A program made the position numbers and the translations under genes. A DNA stretch of 41,300 bases from a virus (lineage: Duplodnaviria; Heunggongvirae; Uroviricota; Caudoviricetes), in the IMG/VR virus record IMGVR_UViG_2778261153_000009, positions 1-41,300 of that record. One strand, 5' to 3'. This document shows, piece by piece, positions 1 through 20,569 of the stretch. Numbering within the stretch: the stretch's first letter is position 1; each line of letters starts with the position of its first letter. The notes under the pieces are model-generated. The model did no database searches. It was not told the DNA's origin and saw only the letters and a program-made list of their open reading frames with translations.

Positions 1-1719
1 ATGATTTTTAGGGATAGCTTGAGAGTATTACCTTATGGTCGAGTAGATAATGATTTCTTCCAGATAGAAGAAAGACGTTCATGGAATGCAGGGCGATATT
101 ATTGGTCTAATAGAAGGATTTTTGGTTATATTGGAATTACTCAATCCAGTAATAAAGAGCTGAAAGATAAGTCGGGGAGAGAGGGATTCATAAGAAACCA
201 GGCTGCAAGAGAACTGAAAACTATTATATCTAATTTGTTAACTGAACTTGCTGATAGATTTTTTGGTTCACGTTCTGATGACCGTAAAGAGCTTTTAGAA
301 CAAGTTAAGCGTGAAAAAGAGTTAAGAAAATCTGCTCAACAACAAGCTCGAAAATCAACACAAAAAAGTTTTTCAGAAGCTTTGAAGAATCAGACACCAG
401 TTCTTGATGCTTCCTTGGAGGCTGTTAAAAGGCTGAAAACTAAGCTTGATAAAACTGATGGTTCGTTAGATTTAAACTATCTTAAAATTATAGACAGTGA
501 TCTTACAAACTTAGATGCGTTGCGCAGTGAAATTAAAACGCCTATCAAACCTCCAAAACTTGGAATGTATGAAGAGAAATATAGAGACTACAGAGATAAA
601 TTTAATGAGTTCTCTGCGTATATTCTACAAATGAAGTTAGCAATTAATAAACTTGATTCTGAATTAAATAAACTTGAGCCTTCATTGTCAGCGAAAAATC
701 ACCTTGAAAAAAATCAAGGTATTATTAATTCTAAACTAACTAAGTTTAATAACACGATAGAGGAGAAGATACATTCTCTTTTAAAAAAATGGGCCGATGA
801 AATAAAGGTTGATCGAAGTGATTATTATGCTAAAACTATATCAGTTGTTGATTCAATAGATAATGATTCACAAATTGAAAATGTGTTTAATTTGCTCGAT
901 AGTTTATATGTTGAGTCAGTTGATACCCTAACTTTCAAATATCAATCAATAATAAAAGGTCTCGATAGATTATTTGAAGGTATAAACTTAGATTCAGCAT
1001 TCTCATTATCTGAAGAAGAACGCTCATATTTTGAAGAAAAAGCTAAAAGTTTAAACGCGCTTGCACAGTTAGGTATTAGTGTTGAGATAATATCTCATGA
1101 ACTTGAAGAAATGGATTCTATGGTAACCAGAGGACTAAACTCTCTTCCTACTTCTGTAAAAGAACACCCTGGTTTTTCATTGGCGTTAAATGCTCACAGA
1201 TCGCTTACTCAACAAATACGTTTCTTATCACCTTTGAAAATATCAGGTTATCAATCCAGGCAGAGAATAACTGGAAAAAATATCATGGATTATGTCCTGA
1301 AGTTCTTTGGGGAGCGTTTCGAACGGCAACGAATAACTATTGAATTTAGTGAAGAGTTTAAGCAAATCGCAATAACAGATATACCATCAAGGATCTATCC
1401 TGTTTTTACTAATATTATCAACAATGCAATGTATTGGGTCAGTCTGTCAAATAATAGGCTCATAAAGATTGGTTTTGTGAATTCTTTGGTTATCATAGCA
1501 AATTCTGGTCCGGCAATTGATACCGATGATATCCCGCGACTATTTGAACTATTTTATAGCAAAAGAGCAAATGGACATGGGGTAGGTCTGTATCTATGTC
1601 GAGAAAACCTTGCTGTTGCACATCATAAAATATGGTATTCAGAACCTGATGAAGGCGATAACTATTTAATAAAAGATGGCGCTAATTTTGTGATCCAGTT
1701 CAATGGAGTGGAGTTCTAA
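1..1719 (+). CDS. Histidine-kinase-like protein (HisKA + HATPase_c) with long charged N-terminal region that looks coiled-coil; possibly 5'-truncated by window edge
   Basis: H-box EIISHELEEMDSMV (His codon 1096..1098), N-box FTNIINNAMYWV, G1 ANSGPAID, F FELFYS, G2 GHGVGLYL; H-to-N spacing ~105 aa. Confidence 0.7.
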   Translation: MIFRDSLRVLPYGRVDNDFFQIEERRSWNAGRYYWSNRRIFGYIGITQSSNKELKDKSGREGFIRNQAARELKTIISNLLTELADRFFGSRSDDRKELLEQVKREKELRKSAQQQARKSTQKSFSEALKNQTPVLDASLEAVKRLKTKLDKTDGSLDLNYLKIIDSDLTNLDALRSEIKTPIKPPKLGMYEEKYRDYRDKFNEFSAYILQMKLAINKLDSELNKLEPSLSAKNHLEKNQGIINSKLTKFNNTIEEKIHSLLKKWADEIKVDRSDYYAKTISVVDSIDNDSQIENVFNLLDSLYVESVDTLTFKYQSIIKGLDRLFEGINLDSAFSLSEEERSYFEEKAKSLNALAQLGISVEIISHELEEMDSMVTRGLNSLPTSVKEHPGFSLALNAHRSLTQQIRFLSPLKISGYQSRQRITGKNIMDYVLKFFGERFERQRITIEFSEEFKQIAITDIPSRIYPVFTNIINNAMYWVSLSNNRLIKIGFVNSLVIIANSGPAIDTDDIPRLFELFYSKRANGHGVGLYLCRENLAVAHHKIWYSEPDEGDNYLIKDGANFVIQFNGVEF

Positions 1720-1720
1720 T

Positions 1721-3469
1721 ATGACAGTGGCAAATTATAATTCTCTTGTCCAGAAAACTTTCTGCGAAAATGCAATTCGTTCCGTTGTCATGATTGATGA
1801 CGATTTTCTGACGTATTCTGAATCAATCAGGGCGTTGAATAACGAAGTTGATTTAGACTACAACAAAATTGACTCATCTAAACGAGCCGCTACTCTTGAG
1901 AGCTTTTTTCAATCTAAAAATATGATTTGTGATGTTGACAATGGTTCTGTTAATTTCGATGTGGATCGGATTAGAAAATCAGATCTTATTATTGTAGATT
2001 ATCATCTTGATAATAATGCACCTGATAAAACACTTAAACCATTACAAGATTTGAAAGACTCCGATCATTTAAATATGATTGTAATATATACTAGAGAGAA
2101 TTTAGAAACGGTTTGGATGCAGATATCATCGACTCTCAAAGGTGCTCTGGATATCAACAGCTTGATCATTGACTACGATAATGAAGATGTCCAAAGTTAT
2201 TGGGAAGACGTTGTATTACCGAACTTAAATGATAATGGTAATAAAGCTCTCACAAGAGATGAAACAATAGCCTATATTAAAGACAGTAAGCCTTGTAGAA
2301 GAATTAAAAGATTAATACATGATGATGCTGTGTTGGAGGATCAAAAGGATAAAAACTTCATTGCAAAAATGATTGCAGAATATGCTGTGTCTAGAAATGC
2401 AATTATTTCTAGCAACACATCTGGCAATGTCATTCGGGGTGATGAAAGCGGAGTAAAATGGATTCAATGTGGTAATATCTTTGTCTCCCTATTTCATAAG
2501 GTTCAAGATGATCATGAAAACGATGGAGATAGGATTTGGCAAACTCTCAATGATTCTCTCATTGAATGGAAACCATCTTATTATCAGTTAATAAAATCTG
2601 AAATTCAGAATGCAATCGAAGCTGAGGCTTTATCTTTTGTAAATCATTTGGCTAACGATCATTACGGTCAAGCTGCGTGGTTAAATGAGATATTAAAATC
2701 AGACTCGCCTGATATTAGATGTAGAAATATTGACTTTGTATTTGGTAATTTATCAGAAGAGCTTTATCAAAGACTTAAAAATAATAATACGCTGGATGAA
2801 TTTATCAAAAGTGTTTTTGATAGCTATTCAAATGAATACGCTAACAGCGGAGTTGCTGCATTGCTCCAATATTGCTCTTCAAAAATGGATCTGCCATCAA
2901 ATAATGATACTTATCACGAAATGTATCATGCTTTAAATATGAATTTGTCTTCAAAGAATTTTGAAGATGGTCATATTTCTACTGGCACTATTTTCTTTGA
3001 TACAGAGTCGAACAAATGGTATTTATGTGTATCTGCGGCATGTGATTTGGTTCCTACTCAGGGTAACGACCCTCACCATGTAAGATTAAGTCCGCACAGG
3101 CTCATTAAAGTTCTGGAGCTTTTTAACGCCAGTCAGAGTAAAGCATTGCCATTTGCTGAACATTCGAAATATATATATGTAATGCATAAAAATCAAAGAA
3201 AATATCTCTCTATTTTCGAAGGGGATAAAACGCTTCCTGTTGTTGATTATATGGTGGTGTTGAATCATGGAACAACAGTTGATGGCGAAGAAAAAAATAT
3301 TATTTCTGCCGTGTTTTTAAGTAATATGGATGGCAACGTGCAAAATGTTCCTGTCCGACTCAAACTTAAATCTCAACTGAGAACTGGTTATGCAGAAAGA
3401 TATCAGGCTATAGCGTCTCAGTATAGCTCAAGGATTGGTGTGGATTATGTATCAATGATGCTACCATAA
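1721..3469 (+). CDS. Receiver-like N-terminal domain fused to ~430-aa domain of unknown function
   Basis: ATG 1 nt after upstream stop with SD GGAGTGGAG; receiver-like pattern VVMIDDD / LIIVDYHL (Asp codon 1997..1999) / MIVIYT / K~140; C-terminal domain not recognised. Confidence 0.55.
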   Translation: MTVANYNSLVQKTFCENAIRSVVMIDDDFLTYSESIRALNNEVDLDYNKIDSSKRAATLESFFQSKNMICDVDNGSVNFDVDRIRKSDLIIVDYHLDNNAPDKTLKPLQDLKDSDHLNMIVIYTRENLETVWMQISSTLKGALDINSLIIDYDNEDVQSYWEDVVLPNLNDNGNKALTRDETIAYIKDSKPCRRIKRLIHDDAVLEDQKDKNFIAKMIAEYAVSRNAIISSNTSGNVIRGDESGVKWIQCGNIFVSLFHKVQDDHENDGDRIWQTLNDSLIEWKPSYYQLIKSEIQNAIEAEALSFVNHLANDHYGQAAWLNEILKSDSPDIRCRNIDFVFGNLSEELYQRLKNNNTLDEFIKSVFDSYSNEYANSGVAALLQYCSSKMDLPSNNDTYHEMYHALNMNLSSKNFEDGHISTGTIFFDTESNKWYLCVSAACDLVPTQGNDPHHVRLSPHRLIKVLELFNASQSKALPFAEHSKYIYVMHKNQRKYLSIFEGDKTLPVVDYMVVLNHGTTVDGEEKNIISAVFLSNMDGNVQNVPVRLKLKSQLRTGYAERYQAIASQYSSRIGVDYVSMMLP

Positions 3470-3540
3470 TTATTATATTTTAGGCGTGGTGATTTTTTTT
3501 CGCCATGCCTATTTTATATTTATCATCACAATGATGTTGT

Positions 3541-3957
3541 TTATTTTTGTTTAAGTCTTCTAAGCTTCATGCATTCTAATGAGAATAATAATAGAGTTGT
3601 GCTGTATATAAAGCCAGAGTTAGTTAATAACTTTAAATTTAATGCTTCAGGATTTTCACTGAGAAAGTGAAAGGCATAAACTAAGTATACAGCTAAAGTA
3701 GCCGTTCCAATTGTTGGTCCAATATCGCCTTGATCATGAGGTTCAAGGTTTACATTGAACTTGAAGATTAGCCATTCAAATCCCCAAGTAAAAAAAACAA
3801 CTAATATCATGGCTGCGAATAATTTCGCGATGTTATCTGCTGATGGATTCATCAGAACAGATTGTTTCTGAAAAAATTCACAAAGTGAGAGTCCGAAAAA
3901 AATAAAAAAAAGTGGTCTGGAACTAAATTTTTCAAAAACTTTGAATAGGGTTTCCAT
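3541..3957 (-). CDS. Small hydrophobic membrane protein, hypothetical
   Basis: 138-aa ORF with several hydrophobic stretches, AT-rich, convergent with the upstream operon. Confidence 0.4.
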   Translation of the reverse strand: METLFKVFEKFSSRPLFFIFFGLSLCEFFQKQSVLMNPSADNIAKLFAAMILVVFFTWGFEWLIFKFNVNLEPHDQGDIGPTIGTATLAVYLVYAFHFLSENPEALNLKLLTNSGFIYSTTLLLFSLECMKLRRLKQK

Positions 3958-3995
3958 TTTCTTTACCTTCAGGATTATATTAGCTATTCTGATAC

Positions 3996-5225
3996 TTAGG
4001 CTACCAGAGCATTTGATCTTTGAGCTTGAACGTAATCACTCCACCATTGCATCAAACTCTGTCGCTCTATCAGATATTCTGCACGATTGTATGCTGCGAT
4101 AATTTCATCTTTTTTCGAGTGGGCAAGCGCTGCCTCAAGAACTTCAGCTCTGAATTTACCAGACTCCTCTGCCGCTGTTCGTGCAATAGAACGCATACCG
4201 TGAGCTACAAGCTCGCCTCCGAACCCCATTCGGATGATAGCTGCGTTGGCTGTTTGTTCATGCATATGATTAAGAGGCGCTTTTATGCTGGGGAAAACCC
4301 ATTCTCTATGCCCACTTATTGATTTCATTAATTCAAGGATGCGCAAAGCTTCTTTACTCAAAGGAACTTTGTGAAGCTTTTTCATTTTCATGAAATCAGC
4401 AGGAATGTTCCAAATGCTGTTGGTTGTATCAATATCAGACCACCTTGCGCGAACGGCTTCACCCGGACGAACCCATGTCAACAATTGCCATTCAATTAGC
4501 ATACGTGTTTCCAACCGGATTGACGCATTCGTCAAAGATTCCATAAACCTTGGCAATTCGCTTGGGGGAAGGGCAGGCATATTTTGCTTTTTTGGTTTAC
4601 TGAATCTTTGACCAAGGTTGTCAGCCGGGTTGAACTCAATAAGTTCTTCAGTAGCTGCCCACCGGAAGATTTCATTCAGACGTGAAATGATACGGCGTAG
4701 AGTTTCCAATACGCCTCGTTGCTCAATAGGATCAAGGTGTTGTTTTAAGAGCTTAGGTCGGATCTCATTGATAGGGACATTACCCAGACCGGGAAAGACA
4801 TTTCTCTCTAAGCTGCGCCAGATGTCTGCTGCATGGTCTTGTGAGATACCTGATGTCTTTACCTTCTCATCTAACCATTTCCGCGCTACGGCTTGGAGAG
4901 TGTGCTCAGTAGCACTCTTTAATGCCTTCGCCTTATCGTTGTTATGGATTTGGGGATCAACACCATTTGCCAGAAAGGAGAGATATTCATCACGTAAGGC
5001 TCTGGCTCTTGCAAGGGTAAGGTGAGGATATGTCCCAAGGCTCATTTTGGTTCTTTTCTTGCTCACTGGTACTGCATACCTGAAATACCAATTTTTCTTG
5101 CCTCCTTTCGCCAAAGGAGCGATTCGTAGAATCAGACCATCACCGTCAAACAAGTTGATTTCTTTATCGGCTGGCTTGGTGCTTTTGATTTCAGTGTCAG
5201 TGAGCTTCTTAGCGATTTTTGCCAT
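3996..5225 (-). CDS. int: Tyrosine integrase, P4 family (IntA-like)
   Basis: N-terminus MAKIAKKLTDTEIK...LFDGDGLILRI, C-terminal SLMQWWSDY typical of P4-type integrases; start moved to Met15 of the ORF by analogy with IntA. Confidence 0.85.
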   Translation of the reverse strand: MAKIAKKLTDTEIKSTKPADKEINLFDGDGLILRIAPLAKGGKKNWYFRYAVPVSKKRTKMSLGTYPHLTLARARALRDEYLSFLANGVDPQIHNNDKAKALKSATEHTLQAVARKWLDEKVKTSGISQDHAADIWRSLERNVFPGLGNVPINEIRPKLLKQHLDPIEQRGVLETLRRIISRLNEIFRWAATEELIEFNPADNLGQRFSKPKKQNMPALPPSELPRFMESLTNASIRLETRMLIEWQLLTWVRPGEAVRARWSDIDTTNSIWNIPADFMKMKKLHKVPLSKEALRILELMKSISGHREWVFPSIKAPLNHMHEQTANAAIIRMGFGGELVAHGMRSIARTAAEESGKFRAEVLEAALAHSKKDEIIAAYNRAEYLIERQSLMQWWSDYVQAQRSNALVA

Positions 5226-5390
5226 TTTGGGACCCTCGGTTTTTGGACCCTTCTTAGTGGGTCCCATTCAGGGTGCCATAACTCGTAGTTCTCAGCAATT
5301 CTCACTGGACGACAATAGACGTAAAAAAGCCCGCAGAGCTTGTGCTGTGTGGGCTTAGTAGACTTCATTGAACTTCAAACAACTAAAAAG

Positions 5391-5422
5391 TGGTGGAGCT
5401 GGCGGGAGTTGAACCCGTGTCC
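5391..5422 (-). repeat. att direct repeat: partial copy of tmRNA (ssrA) 3' end
   Basis: Minus strand reads GGACACGGGTTCAACTCCCGCCAGCTCCACCA, matching the ssrA acceptor/T-arm 3' end as I recall it; upstream lacks any tmRNA tag-coding region. Confidence 0.7.
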
Positions 5423-5849: not shown

Positions 5850-6665
5850 ATGTTGCAGCCAGCAAAAAAAGCATCAGTTATTAGCGCGCGGCTAACTAAA
5901 TACCTCAAAGATGGAGTGAGGATTGATGACTTTAGCTTTAGAAGGATGTTACGTGAGATTGAAGCACTTAGAGATCCTGTCTCTGAGGACTATCTTTTAG
6001 CGTTGGTCTATGGTGCACATGGCCAAGTGAATGAGGCGATAGGCTTCTTTGAGCGTTCCTTGCAGGTATGCCATAATGAGGTTGTTGCAAAGAATTTTCT
6101 TGTTTTCTTGTCAGATTACGGTACGTTGAAGAAAAGCTTTGAAACAAGCATTAAGCTTGCTGAAAGCTTCATATCCCCGTTTATTTATCTTCAAGCTTAT
6201 GAAAACTCCCTCTTTATGGGGAAGATGGCGTTGGCGGAGAAGTATTTCCAGTCATACTCTAAATTGTTCGGAGATAAGGAGCCTGAAAAAATGGACAACA
6301 ATTTTGATGAAGTTGTTTCCCAGGTCGAATCCTTTAAGCAACGTGCCGATCTTTCTGGTTTAGAATATGAACTTATTTTCAATAATGTAGCCAATGTCAT
6401 GGATTCTCAGAAGGTTCATCTTTCGGGAATGCGTTTTTATAATATTTCGGAAGAGAAAGTGAATGCGATTGTATTCATGACAAAGTCTTCTGATGCTGAA
6501 CAAATCGCTGATATGAATATTGAGCTTGCTTTTTCAATGGCTGAGCACGATTGTTTAGTCGGTAAAGATTTTGCTGTTTGGTTTGAATGTAAAGACACAC
6601 ATATTGAGCAGAATGCTATCTCCGAATTAGGTCTGATTACCCGGAGGGTTGCACATGCCGGTTAA
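5850..6665 (+). CDS. Hypothetical protein (AT-rich cargo between att and int)
   Basis: 271-aa ORF, no family recognised; overlaps the next gene. Confidence 0.5.
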   Translation: MLQPAKKASVISARLTKYLKDGVRIDDFSFRRMLREIEALRDPVSEDYLLALVYGAHGQVNEAIGFFERSLQVCHNEVVAKNFLVFLSDYGTLKKSFETSIKLAESFISPFIYLQAYENSLFMGKMALAEKYFQSYSKLFGDKEPEKMDNNFDEVVSQVESFKQRADLSGLEYELIFNNVANVMDSQKVHLSGMRFYNISEEKVNAIVFMTKSSDAEQIADMNIELAFSMAEHDCLVGKDFAVWFECKDTHIEQNAISELGLITRRVAHAG

Positions 6666-7038
6666 TAGTCAAGATTTTCTCGGTTTTGCAAAAGACTGTC
6701 ATCAACGTAATGACGAAATCGGCTATCGAAATGCTATAGCAAGATCCTACTATGGCGCTTACCATCATGTCTTGCCTTGTATGGTAAACGGGCCGAAAGA
6801 CAGTCATCAGGGGCTAATCAATTATTTGCAGGGCGATGCTTCAAGAGGAAGTGAAGTATATGAAGCTAGATATCTAAAAGGGATTAGTTTTATCCTGAGT
6901 CAACTTAAAGCTCAGAGGATTGTTGCAGACTATCGACTTGATCAATCGGTCACTTCTAAACAGTCTGAAGTTGCGATTCTAACAACTGAGAGGCTCTTTG
7001 CTAAGTGTACGGAAATGCTTAAATCGAGAGCCTCCTAA
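6655..7038 (+). CDS. Hypothetical protein, coupled to upstream gene
   Basis: ATG at 6655 preceded by SD GGAGGG; 11-nt overlap with upstream stop; contains RSYYGAYH (R-x6-H) motif. Confidence 0.5.
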   Translation: MPVNSQDFLGFAKDCHQRNDEIGYRNAIARSYYGAYHHVLPCMVNGPKDSHQGLINYLQGDASRGSEVYEARYLKGISFILSQLKAQRIVADYRLDQSVTSKQSEVAILTTERLFAKCTEMLKSRAS

Positions 7039-7043: not shown

Positions 7044-7067
7044 AAAGCCACTTAAGTGGCTTTTTTT
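7044..7067 (+). terminator. Rho-independent terminator (hairpin AAAGCCAC-TTAA-GTGGCTTT + T-run)
   Basis: Perfect stem followed by TTTTTTT between convergent genes; overlaps int stop codon. Confidence 0.5.
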
Positions 7068-8224
7068 GTGATATTGCTGGTCGTATTACCGTCATATTCC
7101 TTTAAATATGAACCATAATGACGAAATAACATTTCCGGCCCTTTATGCCCCATTTGAGCTGCAAGCCAAAACAGGTTTGCTCCCCGGCTGATATGGCGGG
7201 TGGCGAATGTATGCCTAGTTTGATATGGATTTCTGTAACGAATACCTGCTTTTCGCAATGTTGGCACCCATGCTTTTTTCCTGATTGCATCAGCACTTGC
7301 CCAAGGCTTATTGGTCTTTGGATCTTCAAAGACAGTAGTATCCTTCATGAATGTAAATGGCTTCTGATTTATCAGCGCCAACATTGCCTCTTCTGTCAGT
7401 TCAACTTTCCGAGTACCTGCTTTTGTCTTTGTCCCTTTGATAACACCGACAACACTTGCGCTCTGGACATGGGCAGTTTTTCCAACAAAGTCGATATCAC
7501 GCCATCGAAGGGCACATAATTCAGAACTACGCAGGCCTGTATGTATAGCGAACCGGAACAGATTTTCCCATTGTTTGTTTCCGGCTGCTGCTAGTAATGC
7601 ATCAACTTCTGCTGGTGATAGCGGATCAACTACGTAGCTGCTTTCTGCTTCTGACTTATCACTTTGGTAGCGCGAAGCTGTTACTAACGATACGGGGTTA
7701 ATTTGAAGTACCCCATCGGTCACGGCTTCATCAAGTGCTGACCGCAGGAAAGATAACTGGTTGCGAATTGTTTTTAAGGTCGTTTTCTGATTTTGAATCC
7801 ACGCTTTCAGGGTTGCTGGTGTTAATTCACTTGCAGGGCAAATGTGAAGTGAGGCTAACGCACTACGGCATTTTTTATAGCCACCAATCGTAGAGGGTGA
7901 AAGTTTTCTTGTTTCGCAGATTTCAAGATATTCGTCCAGGTACATCTTTACCGTTTTGCCTGCAGCAGCATTACCAAAAATTTTCAAACGAGCAGAACGG
8001 GGAAAATATTCTGCATAAATGAATGTTCCCCTTTCGATCTTATTATGGATTTCGCCGAGTGTACGCTCGGCGTATTTAATGTTCTTTGGTGTTACTTCCA
8101 GATTGGAAAGCGGCTCACGACATCTAACTCCTTTGTAGGTGAAAGTTATATTGATCGTTTCTCCCTGGCGGTGTTTCCTGATTGTTACGCCGCGCGGTAG
8201 TTTGAGCAGTTTTGTCTGGCCCAT
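7052..8224 (-). CDS. int: Phage tyrosine integrase (lambdoid)
   Basis: C-terminal RHTFATRHISRGANLFWLAAQMGHKGPEMLFRHYGSY catalytic region; N-terminal arm-binding-like domain. Confidence 0.85.
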   Translation of the reverse strand: MGQTKLLKLPRGVTIRKHRQGETINITFTYKGVRCREPLSNLEVTPKNIKYAERTLGEIHNKIERGTFIYAEYFPRSARLKIFGNAAAGKTVKMYLDEYLEICETRKLSPSTIGGYKKCRSALASLHICPASELTPATLKAWIQNQKTTLKTIRNQLSFLRSALDEAVTDGVLQINPVSLVTASRYQSDKSEAESSYVVDPLSPAEVDALLAAAGNKQWENLFRFAIHTGLRSSELCALRWRDIDFVGKTAHVQSASVVGVIKGTKTKAGTRKVELTEEAMLALINQKPFTFMKDTTVFEDPKTNKPWASADAIRKKAWVPTLRKAGIRYRNPYQTRHTFATRHISRGANLFWLAAQMGHKGPEMLFRHYGSYLKEYDGNTTSNITKKAT

Positions 8225-8391
8225 TTTGCAACCTCACTAAGATCAATCCACCTCTCCTTAACGCCTTCAACCTTTAAAACCTGAACACCTTCACGCCAAA
8301 CACCGCGCTGTACACGTTTGTTTATTGCTTCAGGAGTTTCGCCAGTTTCTTTGCAATAAGTTGAGATAGGAACACAATCGAGGTTCAGCAT
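8185..8391 (-). CDS. xis: Excisionase-like small DNA-binding protein
   Basis: 68-aa basic ORF immediately upstream of and overlapping int; SD GGAG 6 nt before ATG at 8391. Confidence 0.5.
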   Translation of the reverse strand: MLNLDCVPISTYCKETGETPEAINKRVQRGVWREGVQVLKVEGVKERWIDLSEVAKWARQNCSNYRAA

Positions 8392-8432
8392 ACGTTTCTC
8401 CATTATCCCGTCTGCACACGGGAGCAACATTA

Positions 8433-9299
8433 TTAACGAATAGTGTCGTTACTTTGAAGTACAGCAAATGCCATTAATACTTCTAAAGTATATCTTCTAT
8501 AAAATTTAACAAAACCAACATAGAAAACATAGACGAAGAAAAAGCTAAGCATTATTGAAAGTAAACTATAAAGATAATCACTATGAGTACATAATCGATA
8601 AATAAAGGTTGGAACTGATACCCAAAATGAAATTATAAAGATTAAACATATGTTTCTGCAAAAACCATATAATGCAACATAGTTTTGAATTTTTGTTTGA
8701 TGTTGTTTTGAAAACTCATAAACATAATGATATGCCAATCTGAAGAGATCATCATCAAGTCCGTTTTTATCTTGTAATAATTGGCGATTTGTTATGAACT
8801 TTTTCTCATAACCTTCTTTGATCATTAACCATGTTGTATTAGCTAAATGAAATGGTAGAGATTGAGAATAACATAGTTTTTGTGTTATAAAATCCCATAG
8901 TATTATTGGGCATAATACGCATTTGATTATGCGATTCTTTATTTTTGTTTTTTTATCAGCGCTTCTCTCATCGCATGATGGGCTACAAATGCTTTCTGAG
9001 GTATCTATCAATTTTTTAAATAGATATTTGGAAGGATATCCTAATTCTTTATTCATGTATTTTTCGATAAAAAATGCTGACGTGATAGAAATAAAATGTC
9101 CAGCTATATAAGATATAATAACTATTGAAGCGTAGTTCAAAATGCCAAAGATTTGACTTTGACCTCTGAGCAATTCACTTAAGTCAATAACAATATCTAG
9201 ATCGAATGTCAAACCACAGAAATACATTAATAGGATAAAAAAACCACCTGGTATTAAATATCCAAGAAAGTCATAGAATGAGAATGGATTTTGATTCAT
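8433..9299 (-). CDS. Multi-pass membrane protein, hypothetical (AT-rich cargo)
   Basis: ATG at 9299 with SD GGAGA; multiple hydrophobic segments; AT-rich unlike flanking phage genes. Confidence 0.55.
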   Translation of the reverse strand: MNQNPFSFYDFLGYLIPGGFFILLMYFCGLTFDLDIVIDLSELLRGQSQIFGILNYASIVIISYIAGHFISITSAFFIEKYMNKELGYPSKYLFKKLIDTSESICSPSCDERSADKKTKIKNRIIKCVLCPIILWDFITQKLCYSQSLPFHLANTTWLMIKEGYEKKFITNRQLLQDKNGLDDDLFRLAYHYVYEFSKQHQTKIQNYVALYGFCRNICLIFIISFWVSVPTFIYRLCTHSDYLYSLLSIMLSFFFVYVFYVGFVKFYRRYTLEVLMAFAVLQSNDTIR

Positions 9300-9407
9300 T
9301 GTTGCTCTCCAATAATTTTTCAATTTGTAATATAACCTATATCTATATGTTAATAAATTACTTATATGTTCTTTTATGGCAGAGTTTGAATTCGTACGTG
9401 CTGATTT

Positions 9408-9944
9408 TTACGACTCAGTTAACTCTTTAAAGCGTTCCATAAACATCCCGTAGGCATGGCCCGGTGCCAGTGGAATCACGTTGAACATCTCTGTTGCCGG
9501 GATACCTTCCAGTACGGGCCAGAAAGAGCCATCATCAAGCCCGAGATCGCGGCGTTCGGTTGCCAGCATGATGAGATCGGCATATTTCACGGGCGTACTC
9601 ATAACCGGGGGTAACCCGTATTTCTCACGGATTACGGCGTCTATTTTTTCTTCCATCCGTTTATAGTCAGGAAGAAGGCGTTTCAGTGGAGCCGGGATGT
9701 CCTGGCAATACGCTTCTGTTGCATCATGCATTAACGCTTCAAAAGCAAATTCCTGCGGTACCAGCTGGCTGCAAAGCACCGCATGTTGGGCGACGCTGTA
9801 GAAGTGTGAAAGATGGCCGGCAAAGCGACAGATATTTGAAAGGGAAACCGCGATATCGTTAATATCGATGTTGTCTTTATTTATCCTGTCATAATAAAAA
9901 TGTTTCCCGGAAAAAGTTTTAATAAATGACATTTTGTTCTCCAC
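9408..9944 (-). CDS. yfdR: HD-domain phosphohydrolase (YfdR-like)
   Basis: 178 aa; HD-type metal-binding motifs (H..HD); length and sequence match my recollection of CPS-53 YfdR. Confidence 0.65.
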   Translation of the reverse strand: MENKMSFIKTFSGKHFYYDRINKDNIDINDIAVSLSNICRFAGHLSHFYSVAQHAVLCSQLVPQEFAFEALMHDATEAYCQDIPAPLKRLLPDYKRMEEKIDAVIREKYGLPPVMSTPVKYADLIMLATERRDLGLDDGSFWPVLEGIPATEMFNVIPLAPGHAYGMFMERFKELTES

Positions 9945-10060
9945 GTTATATGCGCTGCACCGCGCTGAATTTTGGTTAAAGAAAACCCTCGCCTTCAGGC
10001 GATTATTGAGTCAATTACGTTTCCATAAATGCCCCCGCAGGGGCATTTGCAGTAATGAAA

Positions 10061-10885
10061 TCAGGCGGTGAAAGTCCCAATAAAGGTTTCTACTTTGCTG
10101 TCCTTGAATTTCTCAACAAGCAGATCACGAAATTCGTTAGCCATATCTTCCTGCACCGCTTCCAGCTGAATAATGCGCAGAACCAGTACAGGACGATCGC
10201 CAGTGATAATGCTGAGGCGTAATTTAAACGGACGTTCTTTCAGACCTTCAAACGGAACGCATTTAAACTCAAATGCCACTGGCATAATGTCTTTGGTCTT
10301 CGCTTCGACAGACTCCATCAGGGAGCGTTTGCCGCTGAAGTCATTATCTTCAAAATCAGCAGTCTGGTTTGCTTCAATCGTGATTTTACGGACCGCCGCA
10401 GCCGCTTTTGTTGCCTGAATGGTGTCACCATTAGCATCAAAGCCCACAAGGTAGTCGGCCCAGTCTTCGATCCATTCTGCCAGTGACTTCTGGGAGTTAC
10501 GCTCGCCGTTAACAGACAACAGAGCAGAGAACGGTGCTGTCTTTTTCAGTTTGAGAGTGGCAGTGTTATCTGCGTGACCTGGCTCATCAATAGTACCCAG
10601 GTTAAGCACACTGACGGCACGCATATTATCGGCATCGATAAAGCAGCGGGTGCCTTCATCTGCAAGATCTTTAGAATAACGGGTAAAATCATCGATGCTG
10701 GCAGTGGAAAGTGCACCACGGAAACGGAAGCGATTTAAATTAAATTTTTCCAGATCATGAATGCGGAAATTCTCAGGCAATGCCACAGCATCGGCACCAA
10801 TCTTACTGATAATTTCATTAACACCCTGAGCAGAAATAAGGGCATGGATTTGATTAATTGCGGTTGCGTCTAAGTTCTGAGACAT
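10061..10885 (-). CDS. yfdQ: DUF2303-family prophage protein (YfdQ-like)
   Basis: 274 aa; position and length match yfdQ in the yfdP-Q-R arrangement. Confidence 0.6.
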
Positions 10886-10950
10886 AATAAGTCCTCACTA
10901 TATAAAGATATTCAGTGATGAGATAAATAATCAGTTTATTACGAACGATA

Positions 10951-11313
10951 TTAACGACCTGCTGCGCGGAGTTTTCCGTCAGGTTCACCGGCAAGAGTCA
11001 GTAATTGTCCCTGGTCTTCCTGCAGAATAGTCAGGCGACCACCGCGATTGACATACATCGGCGTTTCGGTGGTGTCTTCTTCGGAAATTTTCCCGCGGTT
11101 AGTTGGGCGAACATATGAGAGTTTGTGTTTGATTTTCACACGGTTCTCATCAAACGGTTCGATTTCCAGGTTGAGCGAGACCTTACCTTTGGTTTTCGTG
11201 TTCATCACACCGGAAGCGACTTCACTGAGAACTGCGCCGATTTTGGTTTCAAATACGCCGCCGTCCAGCTCCCCGATAAATGCCTGCACATCAGTACTGC
11301 GTTCGCTAGCCAT
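10951..11313 (-). CDS. yfdP: Prophage protein (YfdP-like)
   Basis: 120 aa from ATG at 11313 with SD GAGGAG; upstream part of the longer ORF is GC-rich leader, not coding. Confidence 0.55.
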   Translation of the reverse strand: MASERSTDVQAFIGELDGGVFETKIGAVLSEVASGVMNTKTKGKVSLNLEIEPFDENRVKIKHKLSYVRPTNRGKISEEDTTETPMYVNRGGRLTILQEDQGQLLTLAGEPDGKLRAAGR

Positions 11314-11781
11314 TTTGCTGCTCCTCATCATATCGACCCTGCAAGGTCGGTTAGTTTCTCCACAAAACAGAGAAGAACACCTGCGGTGACTGCCGCCCGG
11401 ATGGATTGGGTTATGAGCCCGTCGTCCGGTGATGCTCTTCTCTGTTTTGTAAAAAGGACGGTACCAGCCGGAAGCAAGGGTACAAGCTGGTACCGCCAGG
11501 ACTACACACAGCATAAAGTTGTGGTGCCGGGTGCCTCCCGGTGCCTGGCGAAGGTTGCACACCAGGCGGGTGGGTATCCACAGAAGGTCGACTGTCAGCC
11601 TCAACCTTAACCCGCGTGCGCTGAGCCGCATTCACCACAACGCTAAGGATTCTCTCTGGTTGAAAATACTTAGCTGTTATGTGCCTGCTTTTAGCCACAT
11701 CAGGCGAGGTGGACCTGGTTATTCCCCAACAACAAGGATTCGGTTAATCTGGTTATCCCCAACAACGCAAAAGGAAAAGAA
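11314..11781. promoter_or_regulatory. GC-rich structured non-coding region between divergent genes (leader/regulatory or ncRNA)
   Basis: 15-bp perfect inverted repeat 11362..11376 / 11436..11450; 9-bp inverted repeat 11460..11468 / 11486..11494; two direct repeats CTGGTTATYCCCAACAAC at 11715..11733 and 11749..11766. Confidence 0.35.
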
Positions 11782-12216
11782 ATGTCCGGTAATATCTATA
11801 CGCTGTACAAATCCCACTGTGAAAATGTTGGAAAGTATCGGGGCATTGAAATCAGTGGGGTAGTGTCATCAGTCGAAATAAGCAAAGTTGAATCAAGGGC
11901 AACATTACTTACTCTTTTGGACCTTGTCTTACATGAGCACCGGAAGAAATTCGGCACTCCCTATAATCAGTTGAATGGGAAAAAGGCTCTGGTTCACCTT
12001 ATTCTGATGAAGCATCACTGGATGCCAAAACAGATTAATGAGATGAAATTTGATGAACTTCTTCTTTCAATTCAGGATGAACTCACACTTGATAAAATAA
12101 GCGTAACCGCCCAGAAATTTTTAGATTATCGAGACTGGAGATCACAAATTCATCACTTTGATGATTTTGACGAAAATGAATGGGATCCTAATTTGTCTGC
12201 ACAATATCTAAAGTAA
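11782..12216 (+). CDS. Hypothetical protein, oriented against the early-left operon
   Basis: 144-aa ORF, ATG preceded by AAAAGGAAAAG; no family recognised. Confidence 0.5.
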   Translation: MSGNIYTLYKSHCENVGKYRGIEISGVVSSVEISKVESRATLLTLLDLVLHEHRKKFGTPYNQLNGKKALVHLILMKHHWMPKQINEMKFDELLLSIQDELTLDKISVTAQKFLDYRDWRSQIHHFDDFDENEWDPNLSAQYLK

Positions 12217-12394
12217 CATCCTGTGATAAAACCGTGATTTCCTGATCCAGTTTTTTTAAGGAGTCTATTGTTTCCTGTCGATAAGACAGCACTTCACGAA
12301 GCTGGTTTATAGCTGCCAGCTTCTTTGTCATCCACTCATAAATTTCCTCATCTGTGTAGCCAGGCGCGACGATTTTGGGTTCTGTTTTGTGCAT
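12188..12394 (-). CDS. Small hypothetical protein
   Basis: ATG at 12394 with SD GAGGAG 7 nt upstream. Confidence 0.4.
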   Translation of the reverse strand: MHKTEPKIVAPGYTDEEIYEWMTKKLAAINQLREVLSYRQETIDSLKKLDQEITVLSQDVTLDIVQTN

Positions 12395-12453
12395 TTCACA
12401 TCTCCTCAAGTTATCAGTTACTTGTTGATGGGGACCAGATTGTTAAAGAGCTA

Positions 12454-12477
12454 AGCGTCCTGTAGGGCGCTTTTTTG
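12454..12477 (+). terminator. Putative intrinsic terminator
   Basis: AGCGTCC-TGTA-GGGCGCT stem followed by TTTTTT. Confidence 0.4.
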
Positions 12478-12689
12478 TTGCTAACGAATCATCCTGGACT
12501 TCATATGCCCCAGGCGGCTACTTCGTGGGCGTCCTGCCTGTTCGTTTTTGACATTTACTGACTGCTTACGACACATGCACCGTGTTGCAACCAGATTTTG
12601 TTGTAATCCTGTAGTTGGTCTGGAACAAAAGATAAAATTAAATTGCGATATATGCAAGTGATTTTTGCGAAATATGCAAATTTATAGGT

Positions 12690-12713
12690 AATAAAAAGCC
12701 ACCTTTCGGTGGC
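12690..12713 (-). terminator. Putative intrinsic terminator downstream of repressor gene
   Basis: GCCACC-GAAA-GGTGGC hairpin followed by T-run on minus strand. Confidence 0.45.
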
Positions 12714-12733
12714 CGATGGATGGGATATTGAGG

Positions 12734-13426
12734 TTAATTATGTCTCTTAAGGGTTTGCGACTGACTGATTAAGACCTTTCCAAAGACCATGAATCGGTGT
12801 TCGTTTTCGCTAGTAATTCCCCATTCACGGTAAATCTGGTTATCAGAAATCACCAGCAGTTTGTCAGGAATCATTTGAAGTCTTTTAACGTATATTTTGT
12901 CATCAAAACCAAAGACATATATACCATCACCATCAAACTGATTGATGCTGACATCAACGAAGATGAGATCTCCTGGCTCAATGGTTGGACACATACTGTC
13001 CCCACGAACGTTGATAACTTTGATGTGATTGGCTGGTCGTCCGCCGAACATTGATACAGCATTATCAGTTCTGTATTCGATGGCATGAATCACATCAATG
13101 ACATCACCGCCCTGGATAAGGCCATTTCCCGCACTGGCACTGATATCCAGCATTTCAATACGGAACACATCCTTCACCTGCGCAACATCCTCATTATTAC
13201 TGTTTTTATATACAGTATTACTTTTGTGGGCAGAGGTAAAGAGATCAGCAATATCAACACCTAAGCTCTTGGCAATATTACTCAGTGTTTGTTCGGTAAA
13301 TTGTTTTTGCTTACCCGTTTCTAAGCGCGAGATGTTCGCCGCATCTACTCCTATTGCTTCAGCGAGATCGGCGATTTTCATGTTCTTCGCTTGGCGAAGT
13401 TGTCTGACTCGGTTTCCTATGTTCAT
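12734..13426 (-). CDS. CI-like phage repressor (HTH + S24 LexA-like peptidase domain)
   Basis: N-terminal HTH MNIGNRVRQLRQAKNMKIADLAEAIGVDAANISRLE; C-terminal autocleavage-type domain; divergent from cro-like gene. Confidence 0.85.
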   Translation of the reverse strand: MNIGNRVRQLRQAKNMKIADLAEAIGVDAANISRLETGKQKQFTEQTLSNIAKSLGVDIADLFTSAHKSNTVYKNSNNEDVAQVKDVFRIEMLDISASAGNGLIQGGDVIDVIHAIEYRTDNAVSMFGGRPANHIKVINVRGDSMCPTIEPGDLIFVDVSINQFDGDGIYVFGFDDKIYVKRLQMIPDKLLVISDNQIYREWGITSENEHRFMVFGKVLISQSQTLKRHN

Positions 13427-13523
13427 GCGTTTATTACATTTCTTTATTGCGTGATAAGCAAATCAACTTGCGCAAAATAATTGCGTGAAATAACATGCAT
13501 AACGCGCAATATCTGGAGGACAT
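13427..13523. promoter_or_regulatory. Immunity operator/promoter region (OR-like)
   Basis: Four copies of TTGCG(T/C)(G/A)A at 13447, 13468 (palindrome TTGCGCAA), 13481 and ~13502 between divergent cI-like and cro-like genes. Confidence 0.5.
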
Positions 13524-13784
13524 ATGCAATCACCATTACGAAATGTGCGTAAGGCGCATGGTTTCACTTTGCAGCATGTTGCTGCGGGTGTTCAAGTCAA
13601 TCCAGCGACGTTGAGTCGTATTGAGAGGCTGGAGCAGATTCCATCTATCGAGCTTGCAGAACGTTTAGCCAATTTTTTTAAGGGTGAAGTCAGCGAAATG
13701 CAGATTCTTTATCCGGCACGTTTTCAATCTAGCCAAAATCAGAATGGGTTTAAACCACAGGAACAGGAGGTGAACCGTGGGTAA
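13524..13784 (+). CDS. Cro-like HTH regulator
   Basis: 86-aa HTH protein, SD GGAGGA, transcribed divergently from repressor. Confidence 0.6.
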   Translation: MQSPLRNVRKAHGFTLQHVAAGVQVNPATLSRIERLEQIPSIELAERLANFFKGEVSEMQILYPARFQSSQNQNGFKPQEQEVNRG

Positions 13785-14328
13785 GCATCACTGGAAAGTA
13801 GAAAAACAGCCTGAGTGGTACGTGAAAGCTGTCAGAAAAACTATCGCAGCGTTGCCGGGGGGGTACGCTGAAGCTGCTGACTGGCTGGATGTAACAGAGA
13901 ACGCTTTATTCAACCGCCTTCGTGCCGATGGCGATCAGATTTTCCCGCTGGGATGGGCAATGATTTTGCAACGTGCTGGTGGAACTCACTTCATTGCTGA
14001 CGCTGTGGCGCAGTCTGCAAATGGCGTCTTTGTGTCTCTTCCTGACGTCGAGGATGTGGACAACGCCGATATTAACCAGCGCCTGCTGGAAGTCATTGAA
14101 CAGATCGGCAGTTATTCAAAACAGATTCGTTCAGCAATTGAAGACGGTGTAGTGGAACCGCATGAGAAGACAGCAATTAACGACGAGCTGTACCTCTCAA
14201 TTTCGAAGCTGCAGGAGCATGCAGCACTGGTCTACAAAATTTTTTGCATTTCAGAAAGTAATGACGCCCGCGAGTGTGCAGCTCCGGGCGCCGTGGCGTG
14301 TCGTGACTGTGGAGAAACTAACGCATGA
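13777..14328 (+). CDS. CII-like phage regulatory protein (CP76 family)
   Basis: 183 aa; position after cro; resembles CII/CP76-type regulators as I recall them. Confidence 0.5.
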
Positions 14329-14663
14329 ACAGTTTAACAACACACTACCGTCGCTCGCAACTGATTGCGCTTCCTGTACCGGGTGGAAAAGCGAAGGTGG
14401 AGTATTGCTATGCAGTAAATGTACCAGGTGACAGGGAAATTGTAACCCACAGCTTTGCAGAGTGGGCTGTGGGTGATTTCAACCGGCAGAAGGAGACAGT
14501 CCTTTGCGACAAGTTAACCGCTGGTTCAAAGATCACTACGGAGTGCCCGTCAGAGTCATTCGTTGGGAGCCGGAAACACAACGGGTTATCTACCTCCGCG
14601 AAGGCTATGAGCATGAGTGCTTCAGCCCGCTCGAACAGTTTCGTCGTAAATTCAGGGAAATAG
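14325..14663 (+). CDS. Hypothetical protein
   Basis: ORF in operon context, overlapping stop/start with neighbours. Confidence 0.35.
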
Positions 14664-14672
14664 AGGTCGGTC

Positions 14673-15614
14673 ATGAGCACTAAATTAACCGGCTATGTAT
14701 GGGATGGTTGCGCTGCATCAGGCATGAAATTATCCAGCGTGGCAATTATGGCCCGCCTGGCTGATTTCAGTAATGACGAAGGTGTGTGCTGGCCATCAAT
14801 TGAAACCATTGCCCGCCAGATTGGCGCGGGGATGAGTACCGTCAGAACGGCTATCGCACGGCTGGAAGCAGAAGGCTGGTTAACGCGTAAGGCGCGTCGC
14901 CAGGGTAACCGCAATGCGTCGAATGTTTATCAGCTTAACGTTGCGAAGCTTCAGGCAGCGGCATTTTCTCAACTGTCAGATTCTGACCCGTCAAAATCTG
15001 ACGCATCAAAATCTGACCCGTCAAAATTTGATGCGTCGAAATCTGGCAAAAAAGCGGGTTTTCACCCGTCAGAATCTGGCGGGGATCCGTCAGTAAAATC
15101 AAAACATGATCCGTCAGATAAAAAAACTTCTCGTCCGGACGCTTCGCAACCGGACACGCAGACGGATGAACAGGATTTTTTAACTCGCCATCCTGATGCG
15201 GTTGTATTCAGCCCTAAAAAGCGCCAGTGGGGAACGCAGGATGATTTGACCTGCGCACAGTGGCTCTGGAAAAAAATCATCGCCCTGTACGAGCAGGCCG
15301 CCGAATGTGACGGCGAGGTGGTTCGTCCCAAAGAACCGAACTGGACAGCCTGGGCAAACGAAATTCGCCTGATGTGTGTGCAGGATGGTCGTACTCACAA
15401 ACAAATCTGCGAGATGTACAGCCGCGTCAGCCGCGATCCGTTCTGGTGCCGTAACGTGCTCAGCCCGTCGAAGCTGCGGGAAAAATGGGATGAGCTTTCC
15501 CTGCGCTTATCGCCGTCCGTAAGCACGTACACTGAAAAACGCGAAGACCCGTACTTCAAATCCAGTTACGACAACGTGGACTACAGCCAGATCCCGGCAG
15601 GATTCAGGGGGTGA
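14673..15614 (+). CDS. Phage replication initiator (O-like; HTH N-terminus, DnaT-like C-terminus)
   Basis: N-terminal winged-helix-like region, repetitive S/D/K linker encoded by iterons, C-terminal replication domain. Confidence 0.7.
   Translation: MSTKLTGYVWDGCAASGMKLSSVAIMARLADFSNDEGVCWPSIETIARQIGAGMSTVRTAIARLEAEGWLTRKARRQGNRNASNVYQLNVAKLQAAAFSQLSDSDPSKSDASKSDPSKFDASKSGKKAGFHPSESGGDPSVKSKHDPSDKKTSRPDASQPDTQTDEQDFLTRHPDAVVFSPKKRQWGTQDDLTCAQWLWKKIIALYEQAAECDGEVVRPKEPNWTAWANEIRLMCVQDGRTHKQICEMYSRVSRDPFWCRNVLSPSKLREKWDELSLRLSPSVSTYTEKREDPYFKSSYDNVDYSQIPAGFRG
14977..15125. repeat. Iteron array (putative phage origin) inside the initiator gene
   Basis: 6-7 imperfect direct repeats of CCGTCA(A/G)AATCTGA followed by an A-rich stretch. 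Confidence 0.6.
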
Positions 15615-16105
15615 TCATGAGTCTGTTAAATGACGTTCAGAAATTCATTGAAGCCCATCCGGGGTGTACTTCCGGAGACATTGCGGATGCTTTTGCTGGT
15701 TACTCACGGCAGCGCGTTCTGCAGTCAGCAAGCAAGTTACGTCAGAGTGGGCGTGTGGCTCACCGTTGTGAAGGGGATACACGCAGACATTTCCCGCGCC
15801 TGACTGAGAGAGCGCAGGAGCCGGAACCACAACCAGTTCGTGAAACCAGACCTGCGCGCAATTTCTATGTCGGCACTAACGATCCCCGGGTGATTTTGTG
15901 CCTGACCCGCCAGGCGGAAGAACTGGAGTCAAGGGGCTTATACCGTCGTGCTGCAACCGTGTGGATGGCGGCATTCCGTGAAAGCCACTCCCAGCCAGAA
16001 CGAAACAATTTTCTGGCGCGTCGTGAGCGGTGCTTACGGAAAAGCAGCAAGCACGCTGCATCGGGTGAAGAGTGGTATCTGTCAGGGAATTACGTGGGGG
16101 CTTAA
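15611..16105 (+). CDS. PerC-like regulatory protein (putative)
   Basis: Motif AEELESRGLYRRAATVWMAA resembles PerC-family signature. Confidence 0.4.
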   Translation: MIMSLLNDVQKFIEAHPGCTSGDIADAFAGYSRQRVLQSASKLRQSGRVAHRCEGDTRRHFPRLTERAQEPEPQPVRETRPARNFYVGTNDPRVILCLTRQAEELESRGLYRRAATVWMAAFRESHSQPERNNFLARRERCLRKSSKHAASGEEWYLSGNYVGA

Positions 16106-16758: not shown

Positions 16759-17081
16759 CGACGTTAACTCAATGCCAGCAGCAGGTGCTGGATATGCTGA
16801 TTTCTTACCAGAAAGAGCGTGGCTTTCCGCCAACCAATCAGGAGGTGGCAACCATGCTGGGATACCGTTCAGTGAATGCAGCGGTAGAGCATCTTCGTGC
16901 ACTGGAGAAAAAAGGCGTCATCACGATAAAGCGTGGCGTGGCCCGGGGGATAACGCTTCATACCGCGGTGAAGGACGACGACAGCGAGGCGGTCGGGATT
17001 ATCCGCACACTGCTTGCCGGTGAGGAAAACGCCAGGCTGCGTGCAGCCCACTGGTTACATGAGAGGGGGCTGAAAGTATGA
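16755..17081 (+). CDS. LexA-N-terminal-like DNA-binding protein
   Basis: QQVLDMLISYQKERGFPPTNQEVATMLGYRSVNAAVEHLRALEKKGVI resembles the LexA DNA-binding domain. Confidence 0.55.
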   Translation: MTTLTQCQQQVLDMLISYQKERGFPPTNQEVATMLGYRSVNAAVEHLRALEKKGVITIKRGVARGITLHTAVKDDDSEAVGIIRTLLAGEENARLRAAHWLHERGLKV

Positions 17082-17467: not shown

Positions 17468-17486
17468 TTAAGAGGAGAAACGAAGT

Positions 17487-18296: not shown

Positions 18297-18297
18297 G

Positions 18298-19293: not shown

Positions 19294-19295
19294 TT

Positions 19296-20564: not shown

Positions 20565-20569
20565 GGTTA

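Follow-up and report, generated by a model that had tools for sequence, protein, structure and literature searches.

An IS3-truncated histidine kinase gene and its receiver-effector partner in an Escherichia coli island at ssrA: probable remnant of a three-gene, restriction-modification-like module

Histidine kinases with a HEF_HK domain (PF19191) and proteins with a Response_reg_2 receiver (PF19192) were defined as families by Bellieny-Rabelo, Pretorius and Moleleki (Genome Biol Evol 2021, PMC8011034), who reported that the two genes are linked in 91.6% of 644 regions and that C5 cytosine methylases, Vsr and type II restriction-modification genes accompany the pair. In that report, the kinases were related to paraMORC GHKL ATPases, 83% of them having an N-terminal HATPase_c_3 domain, the receiver protein had no other known domain, E. 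coli proteins were among the examples, and control of restriction-modification systems was proposed as the role of the pair (PMC8011034). paraMORC proteins have also been described in restriction-modification systems by Iyer, Abhiman and Aravind (2008, PMC2292703). Here, we analyzed a kinase gene (gene 1) and a receiver gene (gene 2) at positions 1..3469 of the virus record IMGVR_UViG_2778261153_000009 of IMG/VR; the whole 41,300-nucleotide stretch is called the window hereafter. The pair belongs to this already described family and is not new, although a preliminary description made from the letters alone had considered it a possible new variant or an unrelated family. Gene 1 is, with high confidence, a truncated member of the family, and its sensor half and an upstream C5 methylase gene were removed by an IS3 element.

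Two other systems are close enough to be compared. Detocs, reportedly described by Rousset et al. in 2023, is said to consist of a histidine kinase (DtcA), a buffer receiver (DtcB) and a receiver-effector protein (DtcC). Ambrosia of Pseudomonas aeruginosa is composed of an XRE regulator, an N6 methylase, a kinase with HATPase_c_3 and HATPase_c domains (AbrB), a receiver of 209 amino acids (aa) (AbrC) and an HNH nuclease; protection is directed against two groups of phages and depends on the receiver Asp (bioRxiv 10.1101/2025.09.30.679545).

The window was found to be E. coli chromosome, with 100% identity to several complete genomes. The features of the gene pair are as follows.

1..1719, plus strand: gene 1, open reading frame (ORF) of 572 codons; the 3' 58% of a paraMORC-type histidine kinase gene (codons 417-988 of 988)
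1066..1242, plus strand: DHp/H-box domain (Pfam HEF_HK), with the phospho-acceptor His366 in codon 1096..1098
1384..1659, plus strand: HATPase_c catalytic ATP-binding domain, with N, G1 and G2 boxes present
1721..3469, plus strand: gene 2, receiver-effector gene, 582 aa, apparently intact in the window
1775..2245, plus strand: Pfam Response_reg_2 (residues 19-175), with the D93 codon at 1997..1999
2951..3421, plus strand: beta-rich C-terminal domain (residues 411-567) of a predicted model, preceded by a helical domain (~268-410)
3481..3511, plus strand: terminator-like hairpin, a 12-bp stem followed by a T run, just 3' of the gene 2 stop

Gene 1 is annotated as a 572-aa 'ATP-binding protein' that starts at an internal ATG. 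The profile hidden Markov model check that had been suggested for the two proteins placed HEF_HK, HATPase_c and Response_reg_2 all above their Pfam cut-offs. In gene 1, residues 356-414 matched HEF_HK with 26.1 bits (cut-off 24.1) and residues 462-553 matched HATPase_c with 44.9 bits (cut-off 26.4). Codon 1096..1098 is CAT and encodes H366 within IISHELEE. We aligned the kinase with 19 homologues from Enterobacterales, Acinetobacter, Shewanella, Rhizobiales, Sphingomonas, Rhodospirillaceae, Gemmatimonadetes, Planctomycetota and Fimbriimonadales. H366 and E367, as well as N471/N474/N475, G503/D507 and G525/G527/G529, were kept in at least 18 of the 19 homologues across these distant phyla, which confirmed the H-box ISHELEE and the N, G1 and G2 boxes as they had been read from the letters. 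The description of the kinase as charged and free of membrane segments also held. No membrane-like segment was found in the gene 1 or gene 2 protein (the top Kyte-Doolittle 19-residue mean for gene 1 was 1.38), and 35% of gene 1 residues 90-350 are charged. An N-terminal HATPase_c_3 (paraMORC GHKL) domain was not found in the gene 1 ORF of the window.

Gene 1 is not a complete kinase, and the pair is not a self-contained two-gene system with a coiled-coil sensor; the preliminary description had itself allowed that gene 1 might be truncated at the window edge and that further components might lie upstream. The best homologues outside E. coli, which come from Klebsiella, Serratia and Salmonella and are 99% identical to gene 1, are 988 aa long and have HATPase_c_3 at residues 28-137. 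In NZ_AP021944, an annotated E. coli genome, the window start is directly preceded by an IS3 element. The 123 nucleotides (nt) that separate the IS3 terminus from window position 1 translate to GVGPFELQIGTFEFLSQNTSHTEREHSHFDLKAKKYAGL, which corresponds to residues 377-416 of the full-length kinase. By tblastn (L001), kinase residues 376-988 begin directly at the IS3 terminus. Because residue 376 abuts the end of IS3, the annotated ATG at window position 1 is the internal Met417, and gene 1 is the first-ATG product of a truncated 988-aa gene. The methylase gene and kinase codons 1-375 (the GHKL half) are missing from the E. coli locus; no C5 methylase was found upstream there, and megablast of the methylase and kinase N-terminal DNA gave no match among 5,426 complete E. 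coli genomes. Thus, the upstream C5 methylase and the sensor half (416 residues with the GHKL ATPase) have been removed from this locus by IS3.

The remnant was detected at at least 99% identity in 560 of the 5,426 complete E. coli genomes (~10%), and the exact IS3-kinase junction was present in 484 complete genomes of this species. The identity of the junction in 484 genomes indicates one ancestral event. A different lesion was observed in Klebsiella pneumoniae CP141543 (L034 4734..7719), in which the methylase is kept and a frameshift near kinase residue 304 yields an annotated '572-aa' product and a 314-aa N-terminal fragment. Since unrelated lesions gave the same 572 aa, this length reflects the first ATG after any lesion and not a natural short kinase. 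Therefore, the 'group 2' architecture of the published family (HEF_HK and HATPase_c only; PMC8011034) can be traced in at least two cases to a disrupted gene that was annotated from its first remaining ATG, and we infer that this artefact probably explains part of that group. Kinases of exactly 572 aa, 82-84% identical to gene 1, are annotated in many genera (P0052-P0071).

Compared with the copy in an intact operon, the E. coli receiver gene showed 12 synonymous and 2 non-synonymous substitutions, and the kinase remnant 3 and 5, respectively; these counts are too small for a firm conclusion on selection. No promoter signal above chance was found upstream of the E. coli remnant. Most likely, the E. 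coli copy would be a non-functional or rewired relic. A 5.6-kb contig labelled as a Bacteroidales metagenome-assembled genome (L005, DAIPZW010000118.1) also carries a kinase truncated to start at residue 376, a receiver gene and a gene for a 138-aa protein. Its receiver protein is 100% identical to that of the window and its protein identities are as at the E. coli locus; it is probably a mis-binned E. coli contig.

The intact operon was found in the Logan contigs L002-L004, in which a C5 methylase (402 aa), the kinase (988 aa) and the receiver-effector (582 aa) are encoded, the methylase gene overlapping the kinase start by 20 nt. The genes of the L002 operon are 99% identical to those of the window, and the same 138-aa gene and the same P4-type integrase gene, then ssrA and smpB, are located downstream. 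The 988-aa kinase protein is listed by NCBI under Enterobacterales, for example in Serratia liquefaciens. The positions of this operon and of related loci with mobile or defence neighbours are given below.

L002 8812..14717: intact operon of methylase, 988-aa kinase and receiver-effector genes
L013 32..4815, L020 11949..15801 and L031 12144..15401: loci with mobile or defence neighbours

A census of one genome per species gave 28 loci, of which 20 had enough flanking sequence to be assessed. A C5 methylase gene adjoined the kinase and receiver genes in 19 of these 20, from Enterobacterales to Planctomycetota, on the same strand when upstream of them and on the opposite strand when downstream. 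Vsr, encoded at 7 of the 20 loci, was the only other recurrent neighbour of the triad; no separate nuclease, XRE or HNH gene was conserved with it. Vsr repairs T:G mismatches arising from 5-methylcytosine deamination. Its frequent presence suggests that methylation of the host genome by the methylase is routine, as in a restriction-modification system. The triad lies beside Tn7-like TnsB/TniQ genes in Acinetobacter and Hydrogenovibrio and adjoins a DISARM DrmA gene in one planctomycete.

The full-length kinase is composed of an N-terminal paraMORC/GHKL ATPase, a conserved region that we read as a transducer, a coiled coil, a DHp domain and HATPase_c. The NCBIfam model restrict_BbrUII/HgiDII (NF050001) matched its residues 13-138 (E = 1.5e-13, 50.2 bits against a cut-off of 550), and a PADLOC scan of the full-length kinase gave no meaningful match. 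Like the HgiDII/BbrUII enzymes, it has their GHKL domain and is encoded in an operon with a C5 methylase and often Vsr, in keeping with the paraMORC restriction-modification systems described in 2008 (PMC2292703). Unlike in those enzymes, the match is confined to the ATPase domain, the remainder being a histidine kinase; the putative effector is part of another protein, the receiver, and a known nuclease fold was not found.

The window locus was then compared with the other described systems. It agrees with the PF19191/PF19192 pair in having both Pfam models above cut-off, adjacent genes and a soluble kinase, with linkage to C5 methylase and Vsr in the family, but the window copy is without HATPase_c_3 and methylase owing to IS3. 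Ambrosia similarly combines a DNA methylase, a HATPase_c_3/HATPase_c kinase and a receiver protein. The kinases are distantly homologous: when the N-terminal 399 residues of AbrB were compared with the full-length homologue P0036, the GHKL domain showed 32% identity (E = 6e-11) and a second conserved motif region was matched (E = 4e-6). In contrast, Ambrosia has five genes, an N6 and not a C5 methylase, a separate HNH nuclease and a short receiver, AbrC, that showed no detectable relation to gene 2, whereas the receiver of the present family continues into a fused, unassigned domain of 320 residues, without a conserved separate nuclease. With Detocs, the pair shares a cytoplasmic kinase, a receiver fused to an effector and a location on mobile or defence islands. 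However, a stand-alone buffer receiver was present neither in the window nor at the 20 related loci, no nucleoside-phosphorylase or other known effector family was found in gene 2 (72 members), the sensor part of the kinase is of the GHKL/paraMORC type, and a DNA methylase belongs to the system. The earlier judgement that this is not a standard Detocs system was therefore sound, and the fact that the missing upstream component is a DNA methylase points to restriction-modification-like rather than Detocs-like logic.

Next, the receiver part of gene 2 was analyzed. The conserved start is 1721, one base past the gene 1 stop as had been stated, with an alternative in-frame ATG at 1703, and the product is 99.7% identical to the copy in the intact L002 operon. 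The hairpin at 3481..3511 marks the end of the operon. Response_reg_2 scored 105.7 bits (cut-off 27). The D93 codon 1997..1999 is GAT. Over 114 diverse homologues, D93 and K260 are invariant and D26, D88 and T124 nearly so; D26, D88 and D93 are invariant in an alignment of 72 gene 2 sequences, and D27 is invariant among 39 closer homologues. Gene 2 thus has the acidic pair, phospho-acceptor Asp, Thr and Lys of a receiver fold. Among the receiver residues named in the preliminary description, the Lys at ~140 is not conserved; the invariant Lys is K260 (codon 2498..2500), which ends the strand 253-259 after a helical insertion of ~100 residues. The receiver fold of gene 2 therefore probably closes only at K260.

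The region that follows had been reported as unassignable, and it proved to be so. Its ~320 residues matched no family in Pfam, NCBIfam, PADLOC or PDB sequence searches (the last with the single sequence and with a C-terminal profile). In 72 members of the gene 2 family, Response_reg_2 was the only Pfam family matched consistently. A PADLOC scan of both window proteins gave no significant match, the sole one listed being a transmembrane model (E = 0.0027). In the predicted model of residues 262-582 (predicted local distance difference test, pLDDT, 80.5), a helical domain at ~268-410 is followed by a beta-rich domain at ~411-567 ending in a helix; in a Foldseek search of this model against PDB, nothing was found at E <= 0.001, the best match having E = 0.03 and a template modelling (TM) score below 0.2. 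N406, G422, C441 and R571 are invariant in this region, and C436, G573 and D575 nearly so. In our judgement, the invariant polar and Cys residues N406, C441 and R571 would suggest an active or ligand-binding site rather than a scaffold or DNA-binding surface. With clustering at 50% identity, the C-terminal region was matched by ~661 representatives; of the 150 listed, nearly all share the architecture of gene 2 at a length of 560-680 aa.

No helix-turn-helix (HTH), winged-helix or nuclease family was detectable in the gene 2 C-terminal region, HTH and winged-helix domains having been sought in 72 members, and neither protein showed a nuclease family or fold. Several candidate identities were considered and rejected. 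An ordinary DNA-binding or GGDEF-type response regulator, the outcome that would have spoken for a plain regulatory role, was dismissed on the absence of any such domain in the 72 members. For a split HgiDII/BbrUII enzyme, whose non-ATPase part would correspond to the gene 2 C-terminal region, NCBIfam gave no match. The resemblance by eye of 'QLR' to MazF 'QIR' and of 'CVSAAC' to MazF 'CVPCTT' was unsupported by the hhalign comparison described below. A small toxin barrel of the CcdB/MazF type may be consistent with the beta domain, for which no PemK_toxin/CcdB Pfam match was obtained, but the signal is weak and serves as a lead only; that the effector is truly related to CcdB/MazF appears unlikely. 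A cluster with 1,605 member sequences (P0128) is represented by a 453-aa receiver protein that ends in ...NDPHH, so that the greater part of its beta domain is missing. This short form points to a second inactivating lesion in an E. coli sub-lineage that is well sampled, although contig ends may also have produced it.

From these observations, we propose a mechanism for the intact triad. The methylase, often accompanied by Vsr, would mark host DNA constitutively. The GHKL/transducer half of the kinase, whose GHKL domain type also occurs in the HgiDII/BbrUII restriction enzymes, may report unmodified or invading DNA through ATP-driven dimerisation. Autophosphorylation would then take place on the conserved His (H366 in window numbering), and the phosphoryl group would pass to D93 of the receiver. 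Subsequently, the C-terminal helical and small beta-barrel domain might be set free and attack the invader or the cell in the manner of a toxin or nuclease. With a sensor that triggers a toxic output, the joint loss of methylase and sensor would be survivable; the E. coli truncation is consistent with the model in this respect and is not proof of it. We consider it probable, by a modest measure, that window 1..3469 is the remnant of a mobile three-gene restriction-modification-like module acting by such a mechanism. Whether the intact triad is an anti-phage or anti-plasmid system is close to an even call, and we lean slightly to the doubtful side. Tentative, and on the whole unlikely in all its parts, is the fuller proposal that the triad is a distinct restriction-modification-like immunity, in which a MORC-type ATPase would sense unmodified DNA and a His-Asp relay would lead to an undescribed toxin domain (helical, with a distant CcdB/MazF-like barrel and an invariant Cys/Arg site); in that case, a negative published screen would be owed to the missing methylase, the gene boundaries or the phage panel, and the E. 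coli receiver-effector may be under selection.

The defence role raised in the preliminary description stood as a prediction, but two related kinase-receiver clones were non-defensive in that screen. DefensePredictor lists the exact product of gene 1, WP_000577254.1, as a 'predicted novel defense gene' with a log-odds of 6.6 (Science 2026, PMC13092281). WP_000214990.1, a 582-aa Response_reg_2 protein with a log-odds of 12.0, is listed likewise (PMC13092281); it is encoded directly downstream of the WP_000577254.1 gene in another strain and was matched to gene 2 by its position. By HHblits, the nearest known defence protein to the kinase was the MzaB ATPase of Gao_Mza (PMC13092281, Tables S4, S6), and no match to Mza was obtained by HMMER against the PADLOC models.

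Several results weigh against the proposed mechanism. Clones 2CM2 (full-length 989-aa kinase) and 2CMP (split kinase), which are related E. coli kinase-receiver units, were scored as defensive = FALSE (PMC13092281, Table S6) when expressed from native promoters on a low-copy plasmid in MG1655 and challenged with 24 phages. According to the authors of the screen, wrong system boundaries may give false negatives (PMC13092281). The 4.8 kb cloned in 2CM2 has room for no more than the kinase and receiver genes, and judging from the coordinates the methylase was probably left out. If the pair attacks unmethylated DNA, however, clones without the methylase should be toxic, and no toxicity was reported. 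Furthermore, the enzymatic activity of the effector is not assignable from the Pfam, NCBIfam, PADLOC and PDB searches or from Foldseek. When 214 aligned beta-domain sequences were compared by hhalign with an alignment of MazF, Kid, ChpBK and EndoA, the probability was only 0.09. The latter alignment was composed of four sequences, of which one, that of B. subtilis MazF, was verified by a tool; a protein search with this MazF, intended to widen the profile, gave only sequences of at least 94% identity. In Ambrosia, moreover, the two-component part was proposed to control transcription and not to carry the effector (bioRxiv 10.1101/2025.09.30.679545).

This last point leads to a regulatory explanation, according to which the kinase and receiver switch on the transcription of linked methylase or restriction-modification genes and the receiver C-terminal region binds DNA. 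AbrC is proposed to act in this manner, with reporter expression rising on infection (bioRxiv 10.1101/2025.09.30.679545), and control of restriction-modification was the role proposed for the family itself (PMC8011034); the helical domain of ~140 residues in the C-terminal region would also fit this reading. However, the 72 gene 2 members contain no HTH or winged-helix family, and AbrC with its 209 aa is not detectably related to the 582-aa protein. Only the methylase and Vsr recur, no separate nuclease gene being conserved with the triad, and we judged the invariant N406, C441 and R571 more typical of an active or ligand-binding site. We therefore regard regulation as an improbable explanation, with perhaps more to recommend it than the two that follow.

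Taken further, the preliminary description would make the pair a complete two-gene defensive two-component system, a Detocs-like variant in which a cytoplasmic kinase with a coiled-coil sensor acts on a receiver-effector. The kinase core and receiver are indeed intact and adjacent, the ORFs are kept in 560 E. coli genomes, and DefensePredictor flags both the exact gene 1 product and the position-matched receiver protein. Nevertheless, the first residue of the 572-aa ORF is an internal Met of the 988-aa kinase, IS3 ends 123 nt upstream of it, and the same '572 aa' annotation resulted from the unrelated K. pneumoniae frameshift. Adding to this, there is no buffer receiver gene or known Detocs-type effector, and the promoter signal upstream of the remnant was not above chance; hence a complete two-gene system is very unlikely. 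Equally unlikely, in our estimate, is a co-opted remnant, in which selection keeps the sensor-less kinase and the receiver-effector, for example as a poised toxin or a cross-talking phosphatase/kinase. Although the ratio of 12 synonymous to 2 non-synonymous changes in the receiver gene, compared with 3 to 5 in the kinase remnant, and the persistence of the remnant at at least 99% identity in ~10% of complete E. coli genomes would fit such selection, these numbers are very small and allow no assignment of the changes to a lineage, recent shared ancestry without selection would also give 99% identity, and the 1,605-member cluster with a receiver protein ending at residue 453 suggests further decay in part of the population.

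Our preferred reading, a remnant of a three-gene module, bears on how such loci are recorded. What appeared to be a fresh two-gene defence candidate is the IS3-truncated copy of a family that is in Pfam, was described in 2021 and has been flagged by defence prediction. The '572-aa ATP-binding protein' in ~10% of complete E. coli genomes is the annotation product of a gene disruption. Architecture surveys that count the 572-aa form as a class of sensor-less kinases are misled, and this class may be inflated in the 2021 report. The appropriate unit for functional work is the three-gene operon including the C5 methylase and not the kinase-receiver pair alone. Moreover, the receiver-fused domain of ~320 residues is conserved in hundreds of lineages and may be of interest for the study of phosphorelay-coupled immunity.

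The surroundings of the pair contain the following features.

3541..3957, minus strand: 138-aa hydrophobic protein, between the receiver gene and the integrase gene in enterobacterial island copies, and outside the triad elsewhere
3996..5267, minus strand: P4-type tyrosine integrase of the island (Arm-DNA-bind_3, Phage_int_M, Phage_integrase; RefSeq start 5225)
5391..5422, minus strand: 3'-terminal ssrA remnant (…CGGGTTCAACTCCCGCCAGCTCCACCA), a 27-nt exact match to the ssrA 3' end within a similarity of ~32 nt
7052..41300: prophage, with integrase 7052..8224 (minus strand), yfdP/Q/R-type early genes, an N6-adenine methylase and baseplate/tail genes

The AT-rich cargo and the P4-type integrase island at ssrA that had been recognized from the letters were both confirmed. 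The G+C content (GC) is 32-35% over 1..4000, compared with 51-60% in most of the window beyond ~14 kb. The integrase domains and the ssrA 3' remnant are present, and the same integrase gene adjoins ssrA in L002; the link to ssrA was established by alignment to a relative and from the annotated genome NZ_AP021944, as ARAGORN and Rfam found no tRNA, tmRNA or other RNA family over the whole window. The remnant at 5391..5422 is an attachment-site copy that divides the island from the adjacent prophage. In NZ_AP021944, intact ssrA and smpB are located ~6 kb past the window end, beyond the prophage; the P4-type island and the prophage are arranged in tandem at ssrA. No family was matched by the 138-aa protein.

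Other genes in and near the prophage were observed as well. A DUF262 protein is encoded together with intact ssrA-smpB just past the window (L033 9906..14837). A complete Kiwa defence pair is located at 19680..21091 on the minus strand, in a patch of 35% GC within the early/regulatory region of the prophage, and is composed of KwaB (19680..20564; PADLOC E = 2e-150) and KwaA (20570..21091; E = 2e-83). Between the ssrA remnant and the prophage integrase gene, two overlapping genes of 38-40% GC at 5850..7038 on the plus strand encode a 271-aa protein with a weak TPR signal and a 129-aa protein with a weak HEPN_IX match (PADLOC E = 0.0014); from their position and composition, they may be a moron or a small pair with a defence or toxin role. 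Finally, a 296-aa prophage protein encoded at 8433..9323 on the minus strand showed a weak PADLOC match to Csx27-type membrane proteins (E = 1.4e-5).

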